Of a stretch of 64,000 nucleotides of DNA, positions 3,833-13,839 are shown in pieces. Positions within the stretch are counted from its first letter, which is position 1. Each line of letters starts with the position of its first letter. Under the pieces are notes generated by a model. That model was given only the letters and a program-made list of their open reading frames with translations. It was not told the origin of the DNA and did not search any database. Origin of the DNA: a virus; the IMG/VR virus record IMGVR_UViG_3300026484_000110. One strand, written 5' to 3'. The position numbers were made by a program, and so were the translations under genes.

Positions 3833-4182
3833 TAACTTTAGCCTCACTAGTTGGAAACAACTAGGAAAATTAAGGCGGTTAATTCGGGGGAACTCCTAAT
3901 CTAATAAAAGAGGTGATTTTGGTTAGGACAATCCCGAGCCAAGCTCCTATCTGGTTACGACTGGATAGGTAGAAGGTGTAACGACTATCCCGTGAGGGAG
4001 TAGGGTGCAAGCCACTGGCACTCGAAAAGCCGCCCACCCTAACGTAAAGTCGAGGGTGAAGATATAGTCTGGTCTCTATGGTAACATAGAGCAGAAGTTA
4101 ATGATTATGGGTATAAAGAAAAGTTTTATATCCATAACATTAACTTCGGGTATAGGAGTGGCGTCCTATACTGAACACATCG
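3833..4182 (+). ncRNA. group I self-splicing intron, 350 nt, no ORF
   Basis: P1 GAGGU/GCCUC with U.G at the splice site; P3 GGCGGUU/AGCCGCC; Q AAUCCCGAGC; R GUAACGACUAUC; S AAGAUAUAGUCU; terminal G4182; removal restores DDSKR-L-NFINIQNSH. Confidence 0.93.
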
Positions 4183-5285
4183 TAAATTTTATAAATATCC
4201 AAAATTCACACGTAATACCCATGAAAAATGCTACAGTTTATCCTGTAAGGACTGGTTACGACTCTGTATTAGCTTATAGATTACCTAAAAAGTTTATAGG
4301 ATTTGCTATTGATGATGGTATAGTAGAAACAGCTAGTAAAAATAAAATAATAGTTAATTACAAAAATAAAGGTAAGAAAACTTATATATTTAAAGATTGG
4401 AATAGTAAAGAAGAATCAAATAGTAGTTTTATACACAGAATGAAATCTAATGTTGTAAAAGGGCAAACAGTTAAACATGGAGATGTTTTATATTACGATA
4501 GTAGTTTCTTCGAACCTGATTTCTTCGATAAAACAAAAGTAACTTATAAACCATATCTTACAGTAACAACAGCTTTAATGGAAATAAATGAAACATTTGA
4601 AGATAGTAGTGCTATATCTAAAAAGATAGCTGATCTAGCAGAAATAGAACAAGTTAAAAGCAAATCAGTAATTTTAGATTGTACAGATGAAATTAGTAAT
4701 GTATTAAAAATAGGAGATAAAGTAAATCCTAACACCGCATTAATGACGATAGGTACTAGTATACTGGATGAAACTGGTAAATTATCAGAAGAGGCTTTAG
4801 ATATTTTACAAGGATTTATAAAGACTACTCCTAAAGCTAAAGTAAAAGGTGAAATAATAGATGTAAAAGTATTTTACCATTGTGAAAAAGAAAACATGAG
4901 TGAGTCAATAAGAGAAATAGTAGAATATGCTGAGAAATTTTTAGTAGATAAAAATACTGGTAAAAAATATACTGGTAAGGTAGATAGTAGTTATAGTATA
5001 AAAGGAAAACCTCTAGATCCAGGTAAAATAGAAATTAAATATTACTTTAGATTAGGATCTAAAATGGTAACAGGTGATAAAGCTATTTTTGGTAACCAGT
5101 TAAAAACTACAGTAGGTGAAATATTTAATTATCCGATTGTATCTGACTCTGGTAAAGAAATAGATGCATTATTTAGTGCTAGAGCAATTTACGCTAGGAT
5201 AGTTAACAGTCCTAGTCTAATGGGTACTACTGCTAGATTATTAAGAGAAATCAGTAAAAAAGCTGCTGATATGTATCTGGGATGA
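4183..5285 (+). CDS. rpoB: virion RNA polymerase beta subunit, N-terminal part, exon 2
   Basis: NFINIQNSHV, VRTGYD, FEDSSAIS, GDKAIFGNQLKTTV (beta GDK motif); in frame with exon 1 after splicing. Confidence 0.88.
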
Positions 5286-5343: not shown

Positions 5344-6858
5344 ATGGATAGACAGGTAAACAATAAAAAAATAAAAACGTTAATGAAAGAAATTATTATC
5401 CTAACATTAAAAAGAATAGCTGTTGAGGATGATGATTTTAAAAAAGTATTGACTGGAATGGATAATAACGTACTAAAAGATTATGTAGACACTAAAGTAG
5501 AGACTAGAATAAAAGAAATGTTACAAGAATGTGCTGAGAAAAATCCAGCATGTACTGGGACTATAAAGACAATGTTAAATAGTATATTTAGTACTGTTAA
5601 ACTAGAGTCGGTAGATAATGATAACTTTATGCCATTGATACCAGATGTAGATAGTAATCTAATAGAAATGATTGCAAAAAAGATGCTAAACGAAATTTAT
5701 CTATATAGAAAGTTTAATGGTGGATTAAAAGCTTATATAGCTAGTTTAAAAAACCTATTAAACAGTAGTGAAACAATAAATCCTAATGAAATGTTTAAAA
5801 TTACATTTTTGGATAAATTATACTATTTCGATATACTAAAAGAATTTGATAAGTTAAGTCCTACTATTTATAAATTTGATCCTAATAAAGTAGTTACATT
5901 AAATTATGCAGATTTAGACATTGTAAGTTTACCAGATTTGATAGCTAATAACAAAATAGAAATAAATATGGCTATTGAAGATATGATAACACAATTGGAA
6001 GATAGTGAAGAAATTGTATCAAAAGCAATTGATATTTTAACATTACCTACAGCAACAGATATTTATAATAAAATAACAAAATTAAAAATAAAAGATGTAT
6101 ATGTATTAACAGTAGTACAGATTATTTTGGATAACCTATTCGATTTAACAAGTGATAAAAATTTACCTATGTTAAGAGAGGCATTAGGTGGTTTACTAAC
6201 TGAAGTAAATAATCGTCTAAAATATTTTATAGATAGAATAGAAAACTTTATGAATAACAAGATAGTAGTATCTGGTGTAAACATATTAGATAAGTACAAT
6301 TATGAAATTGTAGTAACAAAACCAGTATGGTCTGAATTAAAAAATGAACATCCTGAAGTAAATCTGAATACGCTATATGGATTAGCATTAACAATTGCTA
6401 GTGAGAATCCTGGTACTACTGAAATAGTAAGATATGTTAAAGGAGACGATTTAATAATAAATAAAGAAACATATGATAATGCTATTACTAAATTTATAGA
6501 CATGTTAACATTGAGAAATAAACAAAAAGAAAAAACCAAATTAGCTAGCATGTACTTAATACCAAAACATTTACTACCAAACGGTAAAGCTAACGATGGT
6601 TTATTAACAGAAATTATAACTAATCTGACAGACGAATTAAGTTTATCAACATTATCCGATATAAACGCTACAGCTAAATCAATCATAACTGAATATGCTA
6701 TTAAAACAAATAATACAGGTTATGTATGGTTTTTATGGGGACTAGAGGATATACAAAAACTATTAGGTAAAACTGATATTGATCCAGATGAAGGATATTT
6801 TCTAGGTAGTATAGAAACTCTACTTAGATGGTTAACAAATCAAATTAGAATAGTATAG
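5344..6858 (+). CDS. hypothetical protein (504 aa)
   Basis: Long ORF with AAGGAG RBS; no beta' motifs recognised. Confidence 0.8.
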   Translation: MDRQVNNKKIKTLMKEIIILTLKRIAVEDDDFKKVLTGMDNNVLKDYVDTKVETRIKEMLQECAEKNPACTGTIKTMLNSIFSTVKLESVDNDNFMPLIPDVDSNLIEMIAKKMLNEIYLYRKFNGGLKAYIASLKNLLNSSETINPNEMFKITFLDKLYYFDILKEFDKLSPTIYKFDPNKVVTLNYADLDIVSLPDLIANNKIEINMAIEDMITQLEDSEEIVSKAIDILTLPTATDIYNKITKLKIKDVYVLTVVQIILDNLFDLTSDKNLPMLREALGGLLTEVNNRLKYFIDRIENFMNNKIVVSGVNILDKYNYEIVVTKPVWSELKNEHPEVNLNTLYGLALTIASENPGTTEIVRYVKGDDLIINKETYDNAITKFIDMLTLRNKQKEKTKLASMYLIPKHLLPNGKANDGLLTEIITNLTDELSLSTLSDINATAKSIITEYAIKTNNTGYVWFLWGLEDIQKLLGKTDIDPDEGYFLGSIETLLRWLTNQIRIV

Positions 6859-6958: not shown

Positions 6959-8820
6959 ATGGAAAAACTAACATTCTGCTTAAAGTAAATAGATGCAACT
7001 TTCTAAAAGTCACTGTACGCTCACCTAGCGATTTCCTAGACGTGCTAAATAAACTAATAACAACATTACCTAATGGAAAGTTTAATACCGATCTAGAGCT
7101 ATCACTAACTACCCATACCAGTGACTGCGATTATCTAATAAAAGATTTAAATACCTCAGAATTAGCAGTTTTTGATAAAAATGGTAAAAAGGTAATGACT
7201 ATATCTAAAACAAAATATCCGAAATTTGCTAATTGGATAAAATGGGAAAGACCACAGTTTGAACTTTATGAAACAACAACGGAAACAAAACAACCAGATT
7301 TAAACAACAATTCCCAAGAAATTATTGTAAAAAATGAATTTTTAAATAGTCTAGAAGATATATTAAAAGAAACAAACAAAAGCATTTGTTTAACTTCTGA
7401 AGGTGAATTATGTTTTACGGACAAAGAAGACCAGATGGATTATATACCAATACCTGTTAGAAATCAACTGTTAAAAATGGATTATGAAGAATTCAAAAGA
7501 CAGGTAGAATATATTAGAACAGAAATAGCAAGAACAAGTAAAAGCAGAAAATACACTGTTTATCTAAAGACAATAAAAGATTATTATCTAAGATTTATTA
7601 TTAAAGCTAAATCATTAAACTACTGCCTATTGAATATTTCTGACTACTTAGCGTATAAACGTAAAGATGATGATTTTTTAGCAATTGATTTAATATCAAA
7701 ATTACCACTTAACGCAGAATATCTTCTAAAAGAAACTGAAAAACGTGATTTTATTCTGTATAGAATAAACCCTGAATTTGATTCTAACAGTAAAGGAATA
7801 AAAATTATTGAATCCGATACTGGAAAAAGAATTGGTATAAAAACTACAGAAGATTGGTGGAATAATCTTAAAGAATTAAAAGAAACATTATACGAAGAAG
7901 GAGTAAAAATGAATTTCAAAAATAAGGACGAAGCAATCGACAAACTCTATAAAGTATTAAGAGATACAAATACATTTCTAGATTTGGACTTAGAGGATTG
8001 TAAAATAGGCGCTAGGATAAACAATCATGGAAATATGGACCATTATATATCTGGTAATTTTGCAAACTTCTTTGTAACATTGAACAATGAACAAGCTATA
8101 AAATTAGTGGAGACTATAATTCCTATAATTCAACGTGAGTTTGATCCAGAGCATACTGTTACAACTAACGTATGTCTAGTTACAAGCGTATTGCCTGATT
8201 TAAATTACTGTTATGAGCAACCTAACAACAAGGAATTACCAGAAATGGAAAATTTAATACTTTCAGAAATTAAAGTAAAAGACGGATACAAATATGAAAC
8301 TTACGTGTCCCACGATGGAAAAAGAAAATTTATAGCAAAATACAAATTAGAAGAGTTTAAAGAAATAGAAACCAACATAACAAACATTTACAGTAAATTT
8401 AAAGAAAATAAAAAACTAACTAATGAAGAGAACGGATATGTGATCCAATACATCGAAAACAAAATTTCGAATAAAAAATCAATAAGTAATGAAGAAATGA
8501 GACTATTTATAATTGCTATTTATTCTAGAATTTGCTGGATATTAAATGCAGTAAAGACATTTCCTGATCTATCTTCTAAACTAGATGAGGTGTTTGATAC
8601 AGTAAATGAATACTTAAATACTGCCAAAAAAGTAGGTTACCTAAAAGATTTCCATACGGTTCTATTTAATGGGATTGAACTTTATATGGCAGACGAGAGT
8701 AAAGAAGACCATATGAACTTGGTAGATGATTTACATTTAGTATTTACTATGTTACTATCAAAGCTTACTGTGGCAACAACCGAAGAATATCAAAAATCAA
8801 ATACAGTACCAGAGGGATAA
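6959..8820 (+). CDS. hypothetical early protein; probable true start 6959 with a 1-nt frameshift (track ORF 7042..8820)
   Basis: RBS AAGGAG before ATG6959; that frame stops after 9 codons while the long frame is already open; GTG7042 has no RBS. Confidence 0.65.
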
Positions 8821-8874: not shown

Positions 8875-8935
8875 TTTGGTCTAGGTAGTTTCTAGACTAA
8901 TTGTGATCACAATTATTCTACTAAAAGGAGGCCCA

Positions 8936-10150
8936 ATGCCTGTTGTACAACGTATAAAAAATCTGGACGAATACTTTCACGCTACAGAAAGAAAGTTGTT
9001 GCTGAATAATTTTAGTCTTTTAGAGACTAATCCAGAAGACCTAGTAAAACTCCTCTATACTAAATACGAGGATGAAATCACATTAATACCACAATGTGAG
9101 TGTGGTAATTATAAAGGAGCTTATCTATTAGGTAAAGTGTGTCCTAAATGCAATACCACAGTAATCAAGACGTTTGATGAAATTAAACCATTACTCTGGA
9201 TTGAACAATTTAGAGATGATTTACCATTTTTAAATCCTCACTTTTGGACACAGATGCGGTATCTATTATCCAGAAAAATAGATTGCGTAAGATGGTTAGG
9301 TGATACATCATACAATCCACCAGGAGTACCTGCATTTATGCAAACTATTAAAGAATTAATAGGAGGTAGAGGATATAAAAATCTAATTTCCAATATAGAA
9401 AAGATTTTACTATACGTAGCCAATAATAGTCTTTTCAGAGCTAATGGTAAAGATGTTAAAGCTAAAAAGCTATTAAAAGAATATCAGGAGAATAAAGATA
9501 AACTGTTTTCCAGTTATCTACCACTGATAAATAAAAGACTATTTGTAATGGAAGTCACTAATAAGGGTAATTATACTACATCCATGTTAGCCGATACAAT
9601 AGACATAGCATTATTTGCTATCAAGTTAGCTAATCTGGATAAAAACAGTAAAAAGGTAGAAAACGGTACAGCTACCCTAATAGCTAATTTAAGTAACTTA
9701 TTTAACAAGTATGTAAAAGAAAAATTAGCTGGTAAAAAAGGTATGGTAAGAAAACATATTTATGGTAGTAGATCCCATTTTACATTCAGAGCAGTAATTA
9801 CGTCATTACCATCTACTGCTGACTATGATGAATTATGGGTACCGTGGACAATAGGAGTAACAGCATTTAGACCGCATCTGTTAAACAAACTGTTAAAAAG
9901 AGGATTTACCTATAAGAAAGCTAGTAGACTGTTATTTAATTCAGTAAACAAGTATGATCCACTAATAGACGAGCTCTTAATCGAATTAATAAAAGAGAGT
10001 CCTTATAAAGGAATACCTATATTGTTTAACAGAAATCCAAGCCTTCTTCAAGGTTCAATTCAGCTACAATATATAACCAAATTCAAAAAGGATGTTAGAG
10101 ATAAAACTATCAGCGTAAGTATGCTAGTAATAAAGGCGCCAAACGGTGAT
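8936..10150 (+). CDS. rpoC: non-virion RNA polymerase beta' subunit, N-terminal part (phiKZ gp55-like), exon 1
   Basis: AGGAGG RBS; zinc finger CECG..CPKC; RKHIYGSRSHFTFRAVI; NRNPSL; ends in NGD of the catalytic motif; spliced product 481 aa. Confidence 0.9.
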
Positions 10151-11938
10151 CCATTGACTACCCGTTAAACTTAATAAATTTTATTATTATGACTCCTTAT
10201 ATTGAATATTTAAAAAAGGAGTTAAGAATGAAAACAAAAATCAAAAAACAATTTATAAAATACCCAGAGATTCACAAATACCCAAAAGGTTTAGAATGGT
10301 TAAAGGATGCTATAAAATACGTTCCTGCCAAAATAAGACAAGGCAATGGTCCGTATGAAATAGTTCGCATACCGATGTTTGACGCACCTGTTGTATTTTG
10401 CAGTATAAAAACAAGAAAAGAATATGCTGTTGTCCCAATAGCGCCTAGATATGTCGTGGATAAAGTTGGTAATGTTTATGACCTACTAACAAAAACCAAA
10501 CTAAAAACACATGGTCATAACAGCGAATATGAATATGTCGTAATCACAACACAAACACATCCCCAGTACAGAACAACGGTGCACCGCCTTATGGCTTATG
10601 CGTGGTTACCAAACAACGACTTTGTTACAGATTACATTGTGGACCATAAAAATAATGACAAAAAGGACAATCGTTTAGAAAACATTCACTGGACTACTAT
10701 GGAACAGAATTCTGCTAACGTACATAGTAGAACAAACCTAAAATTAGGTATGTATGTGTTAACAAATGTGCTAGATAAAAAGATATGGTTTTGCGATAAC
10801 TTAAACAGAGTGAGTGAAATATTAGGATTGAGTAAATCCACCATATCCGAGAAAAAGACACCATCTTGGTTTAACAAGACATCTAATTCAGAGACAGAAC
10901 CTGATGAGTTATATTATCTAACAGATGACAATAGTTACAGACAATATCTCATGGATCCCAGTTTAATAGATTTACCATGGGGTGTGATTGTTAAAAACAA
11001 GGAAACTGGTGAATTAGAGTTCTATAACAATAAGACTAAATTATGGAGAAAATTGACTGGTGAAAAAGGATACTTATATAAAGATTCTGACTTATTGGAC
11101 GTCTTAAAAGACCATGAAAAGTATGAGTTATTTAAACTACACAAAAAGCAGTCTAAGGAACCAGTGAAAGTCAAAAACTTGGTTACAGGTGAAGTAAAAG
11201 AATTTAATGGTATAAAACCGGCTAAAAAGCTTTTAAAGATAAGTACTACTAAGTTAGCAGAATTTCTAAACGATGACAAGTGTTATAACATAAATGGCTG
11301 GGTGCTATGGAAAAATGGTAAATGGTGTATGGATGACTTAATTAATTATAGTAGAAATACACCTGTATTGGTAGAATTTAAAGATGGAACAAAAAAGGAA
11401 TTCAATGGTATACGGGAGGCAGCTAGACATCTTAATGTAAATCAAAAGACTATTATTAACTTTATGAAAGGTAAGAATGCTCCTATAATAGATTCTCTGG
11501 GTATTAAAAGAATTGTTAAAGTTTAACGGGTCGAGGTCACCCTAGGGTAGTAATACTCTAGCAAAATACTCCCCTAACTGCGGGAACCGTGTAAAAGCTA
11601 TGGCTACCACTCATACCGGGAAACCGAGTATGATACTCATCCCAGTAATGGAGGTGATGAGCATGGTGAAAACGTCATAGTGTTGCGGGATCGACGCAGC
11701 GAAGTCCCTACGTCTTCTATAGATATGGGATATGTTCAGAGGCCACCGAAAGCTGCGACTATGTCGAAAGACATAGTAATAGTGAGGGTAAGGTAAGACT
11801 GCCCGCTGGTAGTGTGACTACTGGTAAAGCGAGTAGGGTACCATCTATATAGATGGGAAACGGGGAGCATCCGACTGCCTAAGGGATGAATTGTCCTATG
11901 GTAAGGGATGAAGATATGGTCCGGGTACAATGTACTCG
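10151..11938 (+). mobile_element. group I intron 1 of nvRNAP beta' (1788 nt) carrying an HNH homing endonuclease gene
   Basis: IGS GUCGAG-GUCACC (11530-11541) complementary to ligated exons GGUGAU|UUCGAC; P AACUGCGGGAA; R UUCAGAGGCCA; S AAGAUAUGGUCC; terminal G11938. Confidence 0.9.
10228..11526 (+). CDS. intron-encoded HNH homing endonuclease with NUMOD1/IENR1-like DNA-binding repeats
   Basis: VHRLMAYAW..VDHKNNDKKDNRLENIHW..N HNH motif; about four C-terminal NUMOD1-like units; RBS AAGGAG favours ATG10228 over 10189. Confidence 0.9.
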   Translation: MKTKIKKQFIKYPEIHKYPKGLEWLKDAIKYVPAKIRQGNGPYEIVRIPMFDAPVVFCSIKTRKEYAVVPIAPRYVVDKVGNVYDLLTKTKLKTHGHNSEYEYVVITTQTHPQYRTTVHRLMAYAWLPNNDFVTDYIVDHKNNDKKDNRLENIHWTTMEQNSANVHSRTNLKLGMYVLTNVLDKKIWFCDNLNRVSEILGLSKSTISEKKTPSWFNKTSNSETEPDELYYLTDDNSYRQYLMDPSLIDLPWGVIVKNKETGELEFYNNKTKLWRKLTGEKGYLYKDSDLLDVLKDHEKYELFKLHKKQSKEPVKVKNLVTGEVKEFNGIKPAKKLLKISTTKLAEFLNDDKCYNINGWVLWKNGKWCMDDLINYSRNTPVLVEFKDGTKKEFNGIREAARHLNVNQKTIINFMKGKNAPIIDSLGIKRIVKV

Positions 11939-11947
11939 TTCGACGGT
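11939..11947 (+). CDS. rpoC: 9-nt micro-exon (TTC GAC GGT = F-D-G) of nvRNAP beta'
   Basis: Lies between terminal G of intron 1 and P1 of intron 2; completes NGD-FDG-DEMN. Confidence 0.9.
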
Positions 11948-12363
11948 TAATGTTGGCTGTCCTAGAGTAGGAATACTCTAGTCAAAAACCCTCCTAATTG
12001 CGGAGACATCCTAAAGCTAACGAGTACTAACTTATCTGGGAAACTAGATAAGGGCATGGAGAGGCGAGTGCTCCATGGTATAGTAAAAAGCTCGTTAGTA
12101 TGGGACAATCCGCAGCGAAGCACCTACGTCCTATTGGATATGGTGTGTGTTCAACGACTGTCGAAAGGATAGCTATTCTGGAAACGGAATAGTGAAAACC
12201 GAGTAGAGTAGGACTCAAGTGAGTTCGAAACGGAGGGCACCCGACTGCCTAAGGGATAAAATATCCTATGGTAAAGGGTGATGGTGTAGTCTGGTCTCTA
12301 GTGAAAGCTAGAGCTGCGGGTAATGCCGCGGGACAGGAGTAACGACCCTGTCTGAACATCACG
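11948..12363 (+). ncRNA. group I intron 2 of nvRNAP beta' (416 nt, no ORF)
   Basis: P1 GACGGU/GCUGUC with U.G; P AAUUGCGGAG; Q AAUCCGCAGC; R UUCAACGACUG; S GGUGUAGUCU; terminal G12363 before GAC GAG ATG AAT. Confidence 0.9.
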
Positions 12364-12585
12364 GACGAGATGAATGCCACAATATTGCTAGACAATGAAA
12401 TGGTGAGACTAGCAGATACATTTAGTCCTGAGTTCAATATTGTGGATTTAGATTATTTTAAGGTAAATAAAAATCTATATCTACCATCTAGTATTATTGC
12501 TACGTTATCTAATTATTTACATAATGAAGATAACAATAAGGTAGATAAAGATCCAGTATTTGAAAAATTGGTATCTACGGGTTAA
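12364..12585 (+). CDS. rpoC: nvRNAP beta' N-terminal part, exon 3
   Basis: Begins DEMN, the usual continuation of DFDGD; in frame with track ORF 12370..12585. Confidence 0.88.
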   Translation, partial: DEMNATILLDNEMVRLADTFSPEFNIVDLDYFKVNKNLYLPSSIIATLSNYLHNEDNNKVDKDPVFEKLVSTG

Positions 12586-12598
12586 ATCTCGTAGATAC
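12571..12598 (+). terminator. hairpin overlapping stop codon
   Basis: GTATCTACGGG/CTCGTAGATAC. Confidence 0.55.
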
Positions 12599-12627
12599 TA
12601 TGTCTAACTTTGACTTAAGGAGGGAAT

Positions 12628-12771
12628 ATGGTAAAATTAGAAGATTTTTTAAAAAGACTGAAAAAACGAAGAATAAAGAATAGAAAAATAAAAGAATGGT
12701 TAGTTAGGACAAAATGTCCAAAAGACGAAGATTATTTTACAAAAGGTGAATTTAAAAATATTACTAAGTAA
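12628..12771 (+). CDS. small basic protein (47 aa)
   Basis: AAGGAGG RBS; MVKLEDFLKRLKKRRIK...; below the ORF-track cutoff. Confidence 0.6.
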   Translation: MVKLEDFLKRLKKRRIKNRKIKEWLVRTKCPKDEDYFTKGEFKNITK

Positions 12772-12792
12772 GAATATTCCAAGGAGTCTAAG

Positions 12793-13839
12793 ATGAAATG
12801 TAAAATTGATTTTAATGTCCAACCAATATTTGATACTGAAGAACTAGCTAAGGTCTATTACGAAACAGATGTATTAGCTAAAGGCAATTTTACTATAATA
12901 CCTGATTTAGGTAAATTAATTGTCTTAAAGAACGAATGGAATACCGGGGATACATTTGATTTATTCAAGTATCCCTGTATATTTAAAGATGAAAATGGTA
13001 ATTGTTTAATAGGTAAATATAAGCCTCAATTCTGTAAAAGTGTAGAAAACAGATTAGAGAATAACATGGACGTTAAAGATACAATAATTGAGGAACTAAA
13101 CGATATAGATAAAAATATACCATTGATTACAAATCTAAAGAATAGCAAGCACTTAAGAATCATAAAACCATTTACAAAACATGACCTCAAGGATTTGAAA
13201 TGGAATAGCGTAATCTATTATCTGGTATATTGTTTCCAAAGAGTGAATATTGGAAAACTGGATATAGGATTAAAAACAGATTATGAATATGTATTAGTAT
13301 TTATAAAAGAAAAAAATAAAAAACGTGTAACTGCTATTAGGTTGTTAAATGTAGATTGCGAAAATGAGTTTTTAAAACCTTATATAAAAATATATAACAA
13401 ATTGAATAAGTACAGTGTATTAAAAGACTATGACTATATCCAGTTAATAATGAACAGATTAAACAGATTATTAAACGGTATCTCGTTTACAGAAATACCG
13501 GAAGAGATATTAAAGAAATCACCTATAGAAAAGGAAAAGAGAGACGAACTAATAAAATTTGTTTATTGGTTAGTCTTGATACAAAAAATGATAACAGAAT
13601 TTAAAATACCATTCATCAGTAGGTATTTAAGAGAGATAGAAAATGATAGTAAAATGCTATTATTTTTAGCCATATATTACTTATATGAAGCCTTGACTGA
13701 TGAGAAATTAGAACTAAAATCTAAAGAAGAAATTACTATAAATGACTTAATACCAAAAAATAAATACGTAGAAGAGGTATTAAGTATTATAGATAAAATA
13801 GCTAGTAGTACGTTAAAGGCATTTATTATGCAGAAATAA
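12793..13839 (+). CDS. hypothetical protein with Cys motif resembling the YkgJ/UPF0153 metal-chelating family
   Basis: PCIFKDENGNCLIGKYKPQFCK; RBS AAGGAG. Confidence 0.5.
   Translation: MKCKIDFNVQPIFDTEELAKVYYETDVLAKGNFTIIPDLGKLIVLKNEWNTGDTFDLFKYPCIFKDENGNCLIGKYKPQFCKSVENRLENNMDVKDTIIEELNDIDKNIPLITNLKNSKHLRIIKPFTKHDLKDLKWNSVIYYLVYCFQRVNIGKLDIGLKTDYEYVLVFIKEKNKKRVTAIRLLNVDCENEFLKPYIKIYNKLNKYSVLKDYDYIQLIMNRLNRLLNGISFTEIPEEILKKSPIEKEKRDELIKFVYWLVLIQKMITEFKIPFISRYLREIENDSKMLLFLAIYYLYEALTDEKLELKSKEEITINDLIPKNKYVEEVLSIIDKIASSTLKAFIMQK

Follow-up and report, generated by a model that had tools for sequence, protein, structure and literature searches.

The question raised by this locus is what becomes of an essential phage gene when two introns lie so close together that only nine exon nucleotides (nt) are left between them, and both introns pair with these same nucleotides. 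The window analyzed here, i.e. the whole 64,000-nt stretch of the IMG/VR record IMGVR_UViG_3300026484_000110, is low-GC DNA of an uncultured jumbo phage, and the sequencing runs that contain it in full are hydrothermal-vent metagenomes only. The introns interrupt the gene for the beta'-N subunit of a phage RNA polymerase, directly within the codons of its catalytic motif. The original prediction for this locus had claimed that overlapping helices of both introns occupy the micro-exon, that splicing must be sequential and could act as a timer on the non-virion RNA polymerase, and that skipping of the micro-exon would give a catalytically dead beta' subunit. Our analysis makes it likely that a pair of selfish group I introns, related but distinct, sits with a 9-nt spacing in the codons of the Mg-binding loop NGDFDGD, that the second hitchhikes with the first, and that the order of their removal is biased and not obligate.

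The interrupted polymerase gene

Exon 1 (8933-10150, on the plus strand like all features described here) encodes a homologue of phiKZ gp55 and PhiPA3 gp054, the non-virion-type beta'-N proteins, and ends with ...APNGD. As listed, its open reading frame (ORF) starts with GTG at 8903, runs into intron 1 and stops at 10166-10168, the protein tail being ...APNGD followed by the intron-encoded PLTTR-stop. Identities of 31-36% to PhiPA3 gp054 and other jumbo-phage RNA polymerase subunits were found by tblastn over 93-100% of exon 1. The PHROG 2987 profile 'RNA polymerase beta subunit' is matched by exon 1 at positions 1-418 of 478 (E=8e-103) and by exon 3 at positions 422-478, and the gap of three positions is the exact length of the micro-exon.

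The splice sites could be placed to the nucleotide. By direct reading, exon 1 closes with the codons GCG CCA AAC GGT GAT, T10150 being its last base. Intron 1 (10151-11938, 1788 nt) consists of a 5' leader, an HNH ORF looped out of helix P1, the ribozyme core and the terminal G11938, its 3' end reading ...GTACTCG. The micro-exon TTCGACGGT (11939-11947), which encodes Phe-Asp-Gly of NGDFDGD, is followed by the ORF-less intron 2 (11948-12363, 416 nt), which starts with TAATGTTGGCTGTCC, comprises P1 to P9.2 and ends ...CATCACG with the terminal G12363. Exon 3 (12364-12585) begins with GACGAGATGAAT, reading GAC GAG ATG AAT, and supplies the C-terminal 73 residues of beta'-N from DEMN to the stop; besides the PHROG match, it was recognized by tblastn with the C-termini of uninterrupted homologues. 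When all combinations were enumerated in which the 5' exon ends with T, the intron ends with G and an in-frame N.D.DGD motif results, a splice-site script returned the single solution MLVIKAPNGD/FDG/DEMNA, which restores NGDFDGDEMN. The placement of the micro-exon thus draws on the sequence itself, the script and the PHROG gap, and direct reading agreed with the exon numbering given earlier.

Judged by these matches, the gene is a phiKZ-type beta'-N gene with an NADFDGD-type motif that would be restored by joining three exons, hence both introns would have to leave before the polymerase active site is complete. Its assignment to a non-virion polymerase is a presumption by orthology only. Gene callers split this essential polymerase gene into two or three truncated ORFs, and recognition of the introns and of the 9-nt exon yields a complete catalytic subunit.

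In total, 238 metagenomic homologues of the exon-1 protein were available for comparison, for which 66 loci (cited by L numbers) were retrieved with alignment and a few more by exact protein look-up. The identical micro-exon is present in L003 and L012. Moreover, a separate 2025 study yielded contigs in three runs that span the micro-exon together with both flanking introns, at 95-99% identity. The contigs of four DNA runs contained no junction removing either intron, which is uninformative on expression. Region 8900-12600 gave zero megablast matches in the phage collection, and the exon-1 protein found no relative in IMG/VR.

Both introns have a group I architecture

The identity of the introns was examined with an alignment of 15 introns, on which the helices of window intron 2 were projected and P7 was treated as a pseudoknot against P3. 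Across P2, P3, P4, P6, P7, P8, P9, P9.1 and P9.2, standard pairs occupy 87.7% of the cells compared to 38-46% when the partners are slid by 1-3 columns, and the covariation score is 0.452 compared to at most 0.126 for slid partners. Both-side changes occur in 34 of 51 pairs, and the observed values were reached by none of 500 shuffles. Such changes affect 5 of 6 pairs in P3, 3 of 4 in P6 and all 5 in P8, while P7 is 100% paired. The two window introns themselves differ by compensatory exchanges in P3 (CUCCCC/GGGGAG in intron 1, CCCUCC/GGAGGG in intron 2), P6 (UCCC/GGGA and CACC/GGUG), P7 (GGCC/GGUC and GACU/AGUC) and P8 (CAUCC/GGAUG and CACCC/GGGUG). A profile made without the window and L003 detects both cores, intron 1 with E=8e-31 and intron 2 with E=1.5e-41, and with a nucleotide profile of six cores, related cores (one to three per locus) were detected downstream of exon 1 in about 40 loci.

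Further features agree with this structure. Both 5' splice sites carry a U.G pair and both 3' ends an omega-G (G11938 and G12363). The P, Q, R and S elements are found in both introns as AAYUGCGG, AUC..GCAGC, GUUCARMGRC and GAURKURURGUC, their consensus forms being assumed from general knowledge. Extra hairpins between P7 and the 3' strand of P3 (P7.1/P7.2) presumably place the window introns in an IA-like subclass, an assignment also made from general knowledge. In structural terms, both introns are confirmed as group I ribozymes, for which self-splicing is predicted. They share the same architecture and are 62% identical to each other, a distance similar to that of either one from the intron of L006. 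A recent origin of intron 2 by copying of intron 1 was rejected, given the identity of only 62%.

The ribozyme core of intron 1, P2-P9, extends from 11527 to 11938 in the 15-intron alignment, and its P9 hairpin GGGUAC-AAU-GUACUC immediately precedes the terminal G. Upstream of the core lies an ORF of 445 amino acids (10189-11526) that was recognized by PHROG 59 (HNH endonuclease) and by the Pfam models HNH_3 (E=3e-8), NUMOD1 (E=5e-9) and I-HmuI_NUMOD-like (E=2e-6), all above the curated cut-offs. It is on this evidence an I-HmuI-like HNH homing endonuclease, which is predicted to nick the intron-less allele; the much stronger conservation of the intron block than of the exons around it hints indirectly at such an activity. 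The ORF sits between the 5' splice site and the guide, i.e. in the P1 loop, a placement as in phiKZ. The long distance is predicted to be closed by a clamp, a long-range 10-bp helix between the arms CCCGUUAAAC (10161-10170) and GUUUAACGGG (11521-11530) that spans 1.4 kb and would place the 5' splice site beside the guide. The duplex of the clamp flanks reaches about -33 kcal/mol, and the 10-bp helix is kept in L003. The P1 helix proper joins GGUGAU (10145-10150), whose U10150 makes the U.G pair of the splice site, to the guide GUCACC (11536-11541); the guide immediately precedes the P2 hairpin, an arrangement shared by intron 2 and L006. All 6 pairs form, at -6.8 kcal/mol. The 12-nt end of exon 1 is identical in L003 and L006.

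Intron 2 does not contain any plus-strand ORF of at least 40 amino acids. Over about 60 nt, its 3' (P9) domain shares 83-87% identity with the intron in phiKZ gp55. The guide GCUGUC (11956-11961), again directly 5' of P2, forms P1 with nt 4-9 of the micro-exon, GACGGU, giving 6 pairs at -6.0 kcal/mol with U.G at the splice site; with two added intron pairs the local hairpin has 8 pairs and -8.1 kcal/mol. A P10 helix of intron 2 was not found, the P1 loop being 4 nt long and the 8 nt before the guide being unpaired with exon 3.

Overlapping helices on the micro-exon

The overlap itself is real at the level of the pairings. The P10 guide of intron 1, GUCGAG (11530-11535), abuts the P1 guide and shares G11530 with the 3' arm of the clamp. 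As had been claimed, it faces nt 1-6 of the micro-exon in six contiguous pairs (U.G, U-A, C-G, G-C, A-U and C-G in UUCGAC/GUCGAG), so that the 12-nt sequence GUCGAG-GUCACC (11530-11541) is complementary to the ligated junction GGUGAU/UUCGAC. The P1 of intron 2 was also correctly described, and the triplet GAC (11942-11944) is common to both helices, which in their full length are mutually exclusive. P10 is worth -5.8 kcal/mol, and the leftover UUC/GAG alone amounts to +1.2 kcal/mol. At the local base composition, 6 of 6 pairs at one fixed register are expected by chance with a frequency of about 0.003. In the single-intron orthologue L006, GUUAUA stands opposite UAUGAC with a 1-nt offset from the P1 guide; the pairing is kept via changes on both sides, which gives some comparative support for P10 in the intron-1 lineage.

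The step from these pairings to a splicing that must be sequential was not borne out. P10 acts only in the second splicing step; it helps in the choice of the 3' splice site and is often dispensable in group I introns. When it was sought in L034, intron 1 of L004, phiKZ, intron 2 of L050 and intron 1 of L044, only 1-4 weak pairs were detected, among them 1-2 adjacent pairs in L034 and intron 1 of L004 and at best 1 in phiKZ. Hence, P10 is not a conserved feature of the intron family and is unlikely to be indispensable. Few exon pairs are also found in the P1 of relatives, such as GAU/GUC together with a long intron extension in intron 2 of L004 and in L018 or GGAU/GUCC in L044 and L048; with 3-4 exon pairs at work there, partial helices may suffice. 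Furthermore, each intron type occurs without the other. The orthologue of intron 1 is found alone in L006, L007 and L009 at the same site (NGD/YDGDEMN), and the GACGGU site of intron 2 is occupied in L050 and L061 (guide GCCGUC) next to a different upstream intron at NA/. It should also be considered that the six-mers targeted by the three guides recur in the pre-mRNA; position and tertiary structure must provide the specificity, and pairing by itself is weak proof. With 6-bp helices and a micro-exon shorter than 12 nt an overlap is inevitable. The shared triplet thus appears as a geometric consequence of the 9-nt spacing rather than a device, and the timer on the non-virion RNA polymerase was pure inference.

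Block transfer into an intron hotspot

The comparison with L003 sheds light on the history of the arrangement. Identity between the two phages amounts to 66-68% in the exons, 82% in the endonuclease ORF, 94% in the core of intron 1 and 96% in intron 2, and the L003 contig aligns with the window over 10213-12403 only. Because the introns are 94-96% identical in phages whose exons reach only 66-68%, the twin unit seems to move as a block.

The target of this movement is used by many introns. For the 120 best homologues, a rough classification of the interruptions counts 47 with a continuous gene, about 59 that break off at some five points in N.D.DGD and 12 that do so at an upstream RNQ site. 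On this count, the N(A/G)D(F/Y)DGD codons are an intron hotspot. Tandem arrangements with other micro-exons were identified in L004, L005 and L008 (NGDF/FDGD/EMN, with an 11-nt micro-exon and the Phe codon split between exon 1 and micro-exon), in L050 and L061 (NA/DFDG/DAVN, 12 nt), in L047 (NG/DYDG/D..., 12 nt) and in L044, L048, L049 and L052 (...DG/D/ELN, 3 nt, GAU). In L054 (5724-8285) three apparent group I introns fall within 18 nt (NG/DYDG/D/ELN), separated by a 12-nt and a 3-nt (GAU) micro-exon. Where the micro-exon has 3 nt, the terminal G of the upstream intron seems to be part of the downstream P1 (GGAU/GUCC). Such 3-nt micro-exons would argue for interdependence far more strongly than the window does.

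Some observations on the relatives are noted in their own right. In L045, L046, L047, L049, L052 and L054 (~5715-5740) the 5' exon at ...DG/ ends with GGA, GGG, GGC or GGU, and the L047 guide CCCAUC gives a G-C pair at the inferred 5' splice site. The non-U 5' splice sites of this distant subfamily point to either a relaxed cleavage-site rule or differently placed sites. A second insertion site lies after RN(P/Q), about 100 nt upstream of the motif, as seen in L015, L026, L027 and L062. A group I core is present there in at least 12 of the 120 homologues, often alongside an intron in the catalytic motif, and L015 has three cores.

Two neighbouring regions of the window are also worth mentioning. 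Another, upstream polymerase gene contains a third, ORF-less group I-like intron at 3833-4183 with the elements AAUUCGGGGGAAC, AAUCCCGAGCC, GUAACGACUAUCC and GAAGAUAUAGUCUGG and the 3' end ...CUGAACACAUCG; our own intron profile missed it at E<=10. The ORF at 7042-8820 (592 amino acids) adjoins the beta'-N gene upstream, which is the slot of the nuclear shell protein in phiKZ (gp54) and PhiPA3. It was matched neither by PHROG nor, in the phage collection, by tblastn; the search for chimallin covered this ORF within the window.

A probable hitchhiking intron and the alternatives

In the explanation that we favour, intron 1 would be the mobile partner, as it carries the I-HmuI-like endonuclease, and intron 2 would spread most likely by co-conversion during the homing of intron 1. 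Once transcribed, the P1 hairpin of intron 2 would usually be the first to form, because it is more stable and does not depend on a long-range contact. Excision of intron 2 would make the micro-exon continuous with exon 3 and leave it free for the full P10 in the ligation step of intron 1. Alternatively, intron 1 may finish first with a partial P10 or none, in which case only its P9 hairpin and terminal G would probably position the site. The outcome would be a bias towards intron 2 first, with neither an obligate order nor a dedicated timer.

Several points weigh against this explanation. The hitchhiking of intron 2 is deduced from co-inheritance in two lineages only. The conservation of the ribozymes over the exons could partly reflect structural constraint and not recent transfer; however, the endonuclease ORF is also more similar (82%) than the exons (67%), which favours transfer over structural constraint. 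The covariation of P10 comes down to one independent comparison, L006, which needs a 1-nt offset. Finally, Rfam gave no group I match, neither in the whole window at the gathering score nor in region 9500-13000 at E<=10, where only unrelated families at chance level appeared. Hence, the group I identity is based on our own alignment and covariation instead of a curated model. Given the structural features described above, we take the Rfam miss to mean that the model falls short for this phage lineage.

The missing Rfam match would also suit the view that the region is unspliced, the gene being split or decayed and the ribozyme-like sequences being relics. This view deserves almost no credence. 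Neither intron has lost a core helix, and these helices covary within the family; each guide is an exact match to its exon, with U.G present at the two 5' sites and G at the two 3' ends; joining the exons regenerates the catalytic motif precisely and in frame; and the introns are 94-96% conserved between phages with 67%-identical exons. Could the shared GAC instead force a strict order, such that the delayed supply of functional beta' is a timer for the assembly of the non-virion polymerase and for middle and late transcription? The mutual exclusion of the full helices and the unstable UUC/GAG remainder (+1.2 kcal/mol) fit such a timer, spliced phage transcripts appear time-dependently for some Bastillevirinae introns (PMC11878797), and the relatives with 3-nt micro-exons (L044, L048, L049 and L052), in which the downstream P1 seemingly takes the upstream terminal G, indicate that interdependence may exist in the hotspot. 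Nevertheless, we regard the timer as very unlikely. Related introns at neighbouring sites have at most a weak P10, and the arrangement was transferred horizontally as a selfish block. A lineage-wide need for delay is not visible, because L006, L007 and L009 live with the intron-1 orthologue without intron 2 and 47 of the 120 homologues are intron-free. Moreover, splicing rates are unreadable from sequence. It is highly improbable, too, that the overlap renders the ribozymes interdependent to the extent that intron 2 must go first for accurate ligation, with misligation or micro-exon skipping as the penalty, and that such a two-ribozyme relay sets the yield and timing of the polymerase with dead beta' as by-product or regulator.

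Skipping of the micro-exon has also been weighed independently of any timer. A meaningful share of the transcripts would skip it or use a cryptic site, leading to a catalytically dead beta' without FDG that could be a dominant-negative or regulatory isoform. The earlier statement that loss of the 9 nt keeps the frame (NGD-DEMN) is correct, the two ribozymes are related (62% identity, same architecture) as in the Twort orf142 and SIOphi cases, and the Gly-Asp codon repeats supply look-alike sites. For example, the guide of intron 2 pairs at 5 of 6 positions with AACGGU in exon 1 (10142-10147), 3 nt upstream of the intron-1 splice site, and use of this site would yield APNG/DEMN. This cryptic pairing (-3.8 kcal/mol) is, however, weaker than the true P1. 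The guide of intron 1, GUCACC, pairs at 6 of 6 positions with GGUGAC at the joint of micro-exon and exon 3 (11945-11947 plus 12364-12366; -8.1 kcal/mol), which is a decoy at most because the U.G needed for cleavage is absent. In addition, the P10 guide of intron 1 fits exon 3 poorly (-3.8 compared to -5.8 kcal/mol on the micro-exon), hence skipping is not favoured, and a dead catalytic subunit would be costly. Skipping to a meaningful extent is therefore rated as quite unlikely. Intron 2 might also be kept as a protection, since at 9 bp downstream of the intron-1 site it would break the target of homing endonucleases of the intron-1 or another type, and the locus would then reflect intron competition and not hitchhiking. 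Enzymes of the I-HmuI type contact chiefly the 3'-exon DNA, which counts for such a role, and the few codons concerned are contested by a wide range of introns. Furthermore, intron endonucleases are weapons between co-infecting chimalliviruses (PMC11620839). Protection is still an unlikely explanation, given that this type of intron 2 is always accompanied by intron 1 in both lineages (the window and L003/L012) and that a close relative with intron 2 only was not found.

Significance and comparison with known systems

Introns at the catalytic Asp codons of chimalliviruses, parental and offspring introns, micro-exons of 1 nt and exon skipping in phages are known already (PMC11620839, PMC5871332, PMC5436844, PMC11878797), and our literature search found no paper on tandem introns or micro-exons in the phiKZ-type beta'-N gene. 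The hotspot may matter more than the single overlap: introns have entered the seven Mg-binding-loop codons at five or more points, one relative accommodates up to three of them within 18 nt, and entire intron blocks pass between phages of about 67% identity. The micro-exon series of 3, 9, 11 and 12 nt is a natural test of how ribozymes with overlapping P1 and P10 partners interfere with each other, a question that was raised by the published exon-skipping cases and left unsettled by them. If a splicing order or a skipped isoform were true, it would be a rare example of RNA-level control over a phage's own transcription machinery.

The closest known system is found in phiKZ gp55/gp56/gp56.1, in which the orthologous gene is interrupted in its catalytic motif and an HNH ORF likewise begins immediately behind the 5' splice site and stops shortly ahead of the guide. 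In contrast to the window, phiKZ has a single intron at APN/ADFDGDQLN, 6 nt upstream of the window intron 1, and no micro-exon. The phiKZ record annotates the pieces as separate genes, with gp56 as HNH gene, a 370-nt unannotated gap and the small ORF gp56.1, and the PhiPA3 homologue gp054 is uninterrupted (488 amino acids). Another intron of PhiPA3, in the gene gp210 for the beta subunit of the virion RNA polymerase, also encodes an I-HmuI-like nicking HNH enzyme and sits immediately downstream of catalytic Asp codons (Birkholz et al. 2024, PMC11620839). It differs by belonging to the virion polymerase and to another subunit, by being a single intron, and by a role in competition that was shown experimentally.

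Exon skipping between tandem group I introns was described for Twort orf142 (Landthaler and Shub 1999, as cited in PMC11878797). More than 47% of the transcripts were exon-skipped in SIOphi, and the ribonucleotide reductase gene of phiNIT1 has a small internal exon between two introns (PMC11878797). These Bastillevirinae phages share with the window the presence of several related group I introns in one phage gene, where a 5' site can be joined to the next 3' site. However, their cases are experimental and concern Herelleviridae genes for DNA metabolism, terminase and tail tube, whereas the window case is read from sequence and concerns an RNA polymerase gene with a 9-nt exon.

Outside the phages, the genes polr2a and polr2b of Bodo saltans virus combine an endonuclease-bearing 'parental' intron with related ORF-less 'offspring' introns, also in RNA polymerase genes, and the offspring are thought to rely on the endonuclease of the parent (Deeg et al. 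2018, PMC5871332). This is a eukaryotic giant virus, and its offspring introns are up to 94% identical to each other compared to 62% for the two introns of the window. Finally, the mitochondrial cox1 gene of placozoans has a micro-exon between two group I introns that is far too short for separate P1 and P10 partners and is nevertheless kept in the mRNA (PMC5436844). In contrast to the phage locus, it is an organelle gene with a micro-exon of 1 nt instead of 9 nt, and an endonuclease-driven block transfer has not been described there (PMC5436844).

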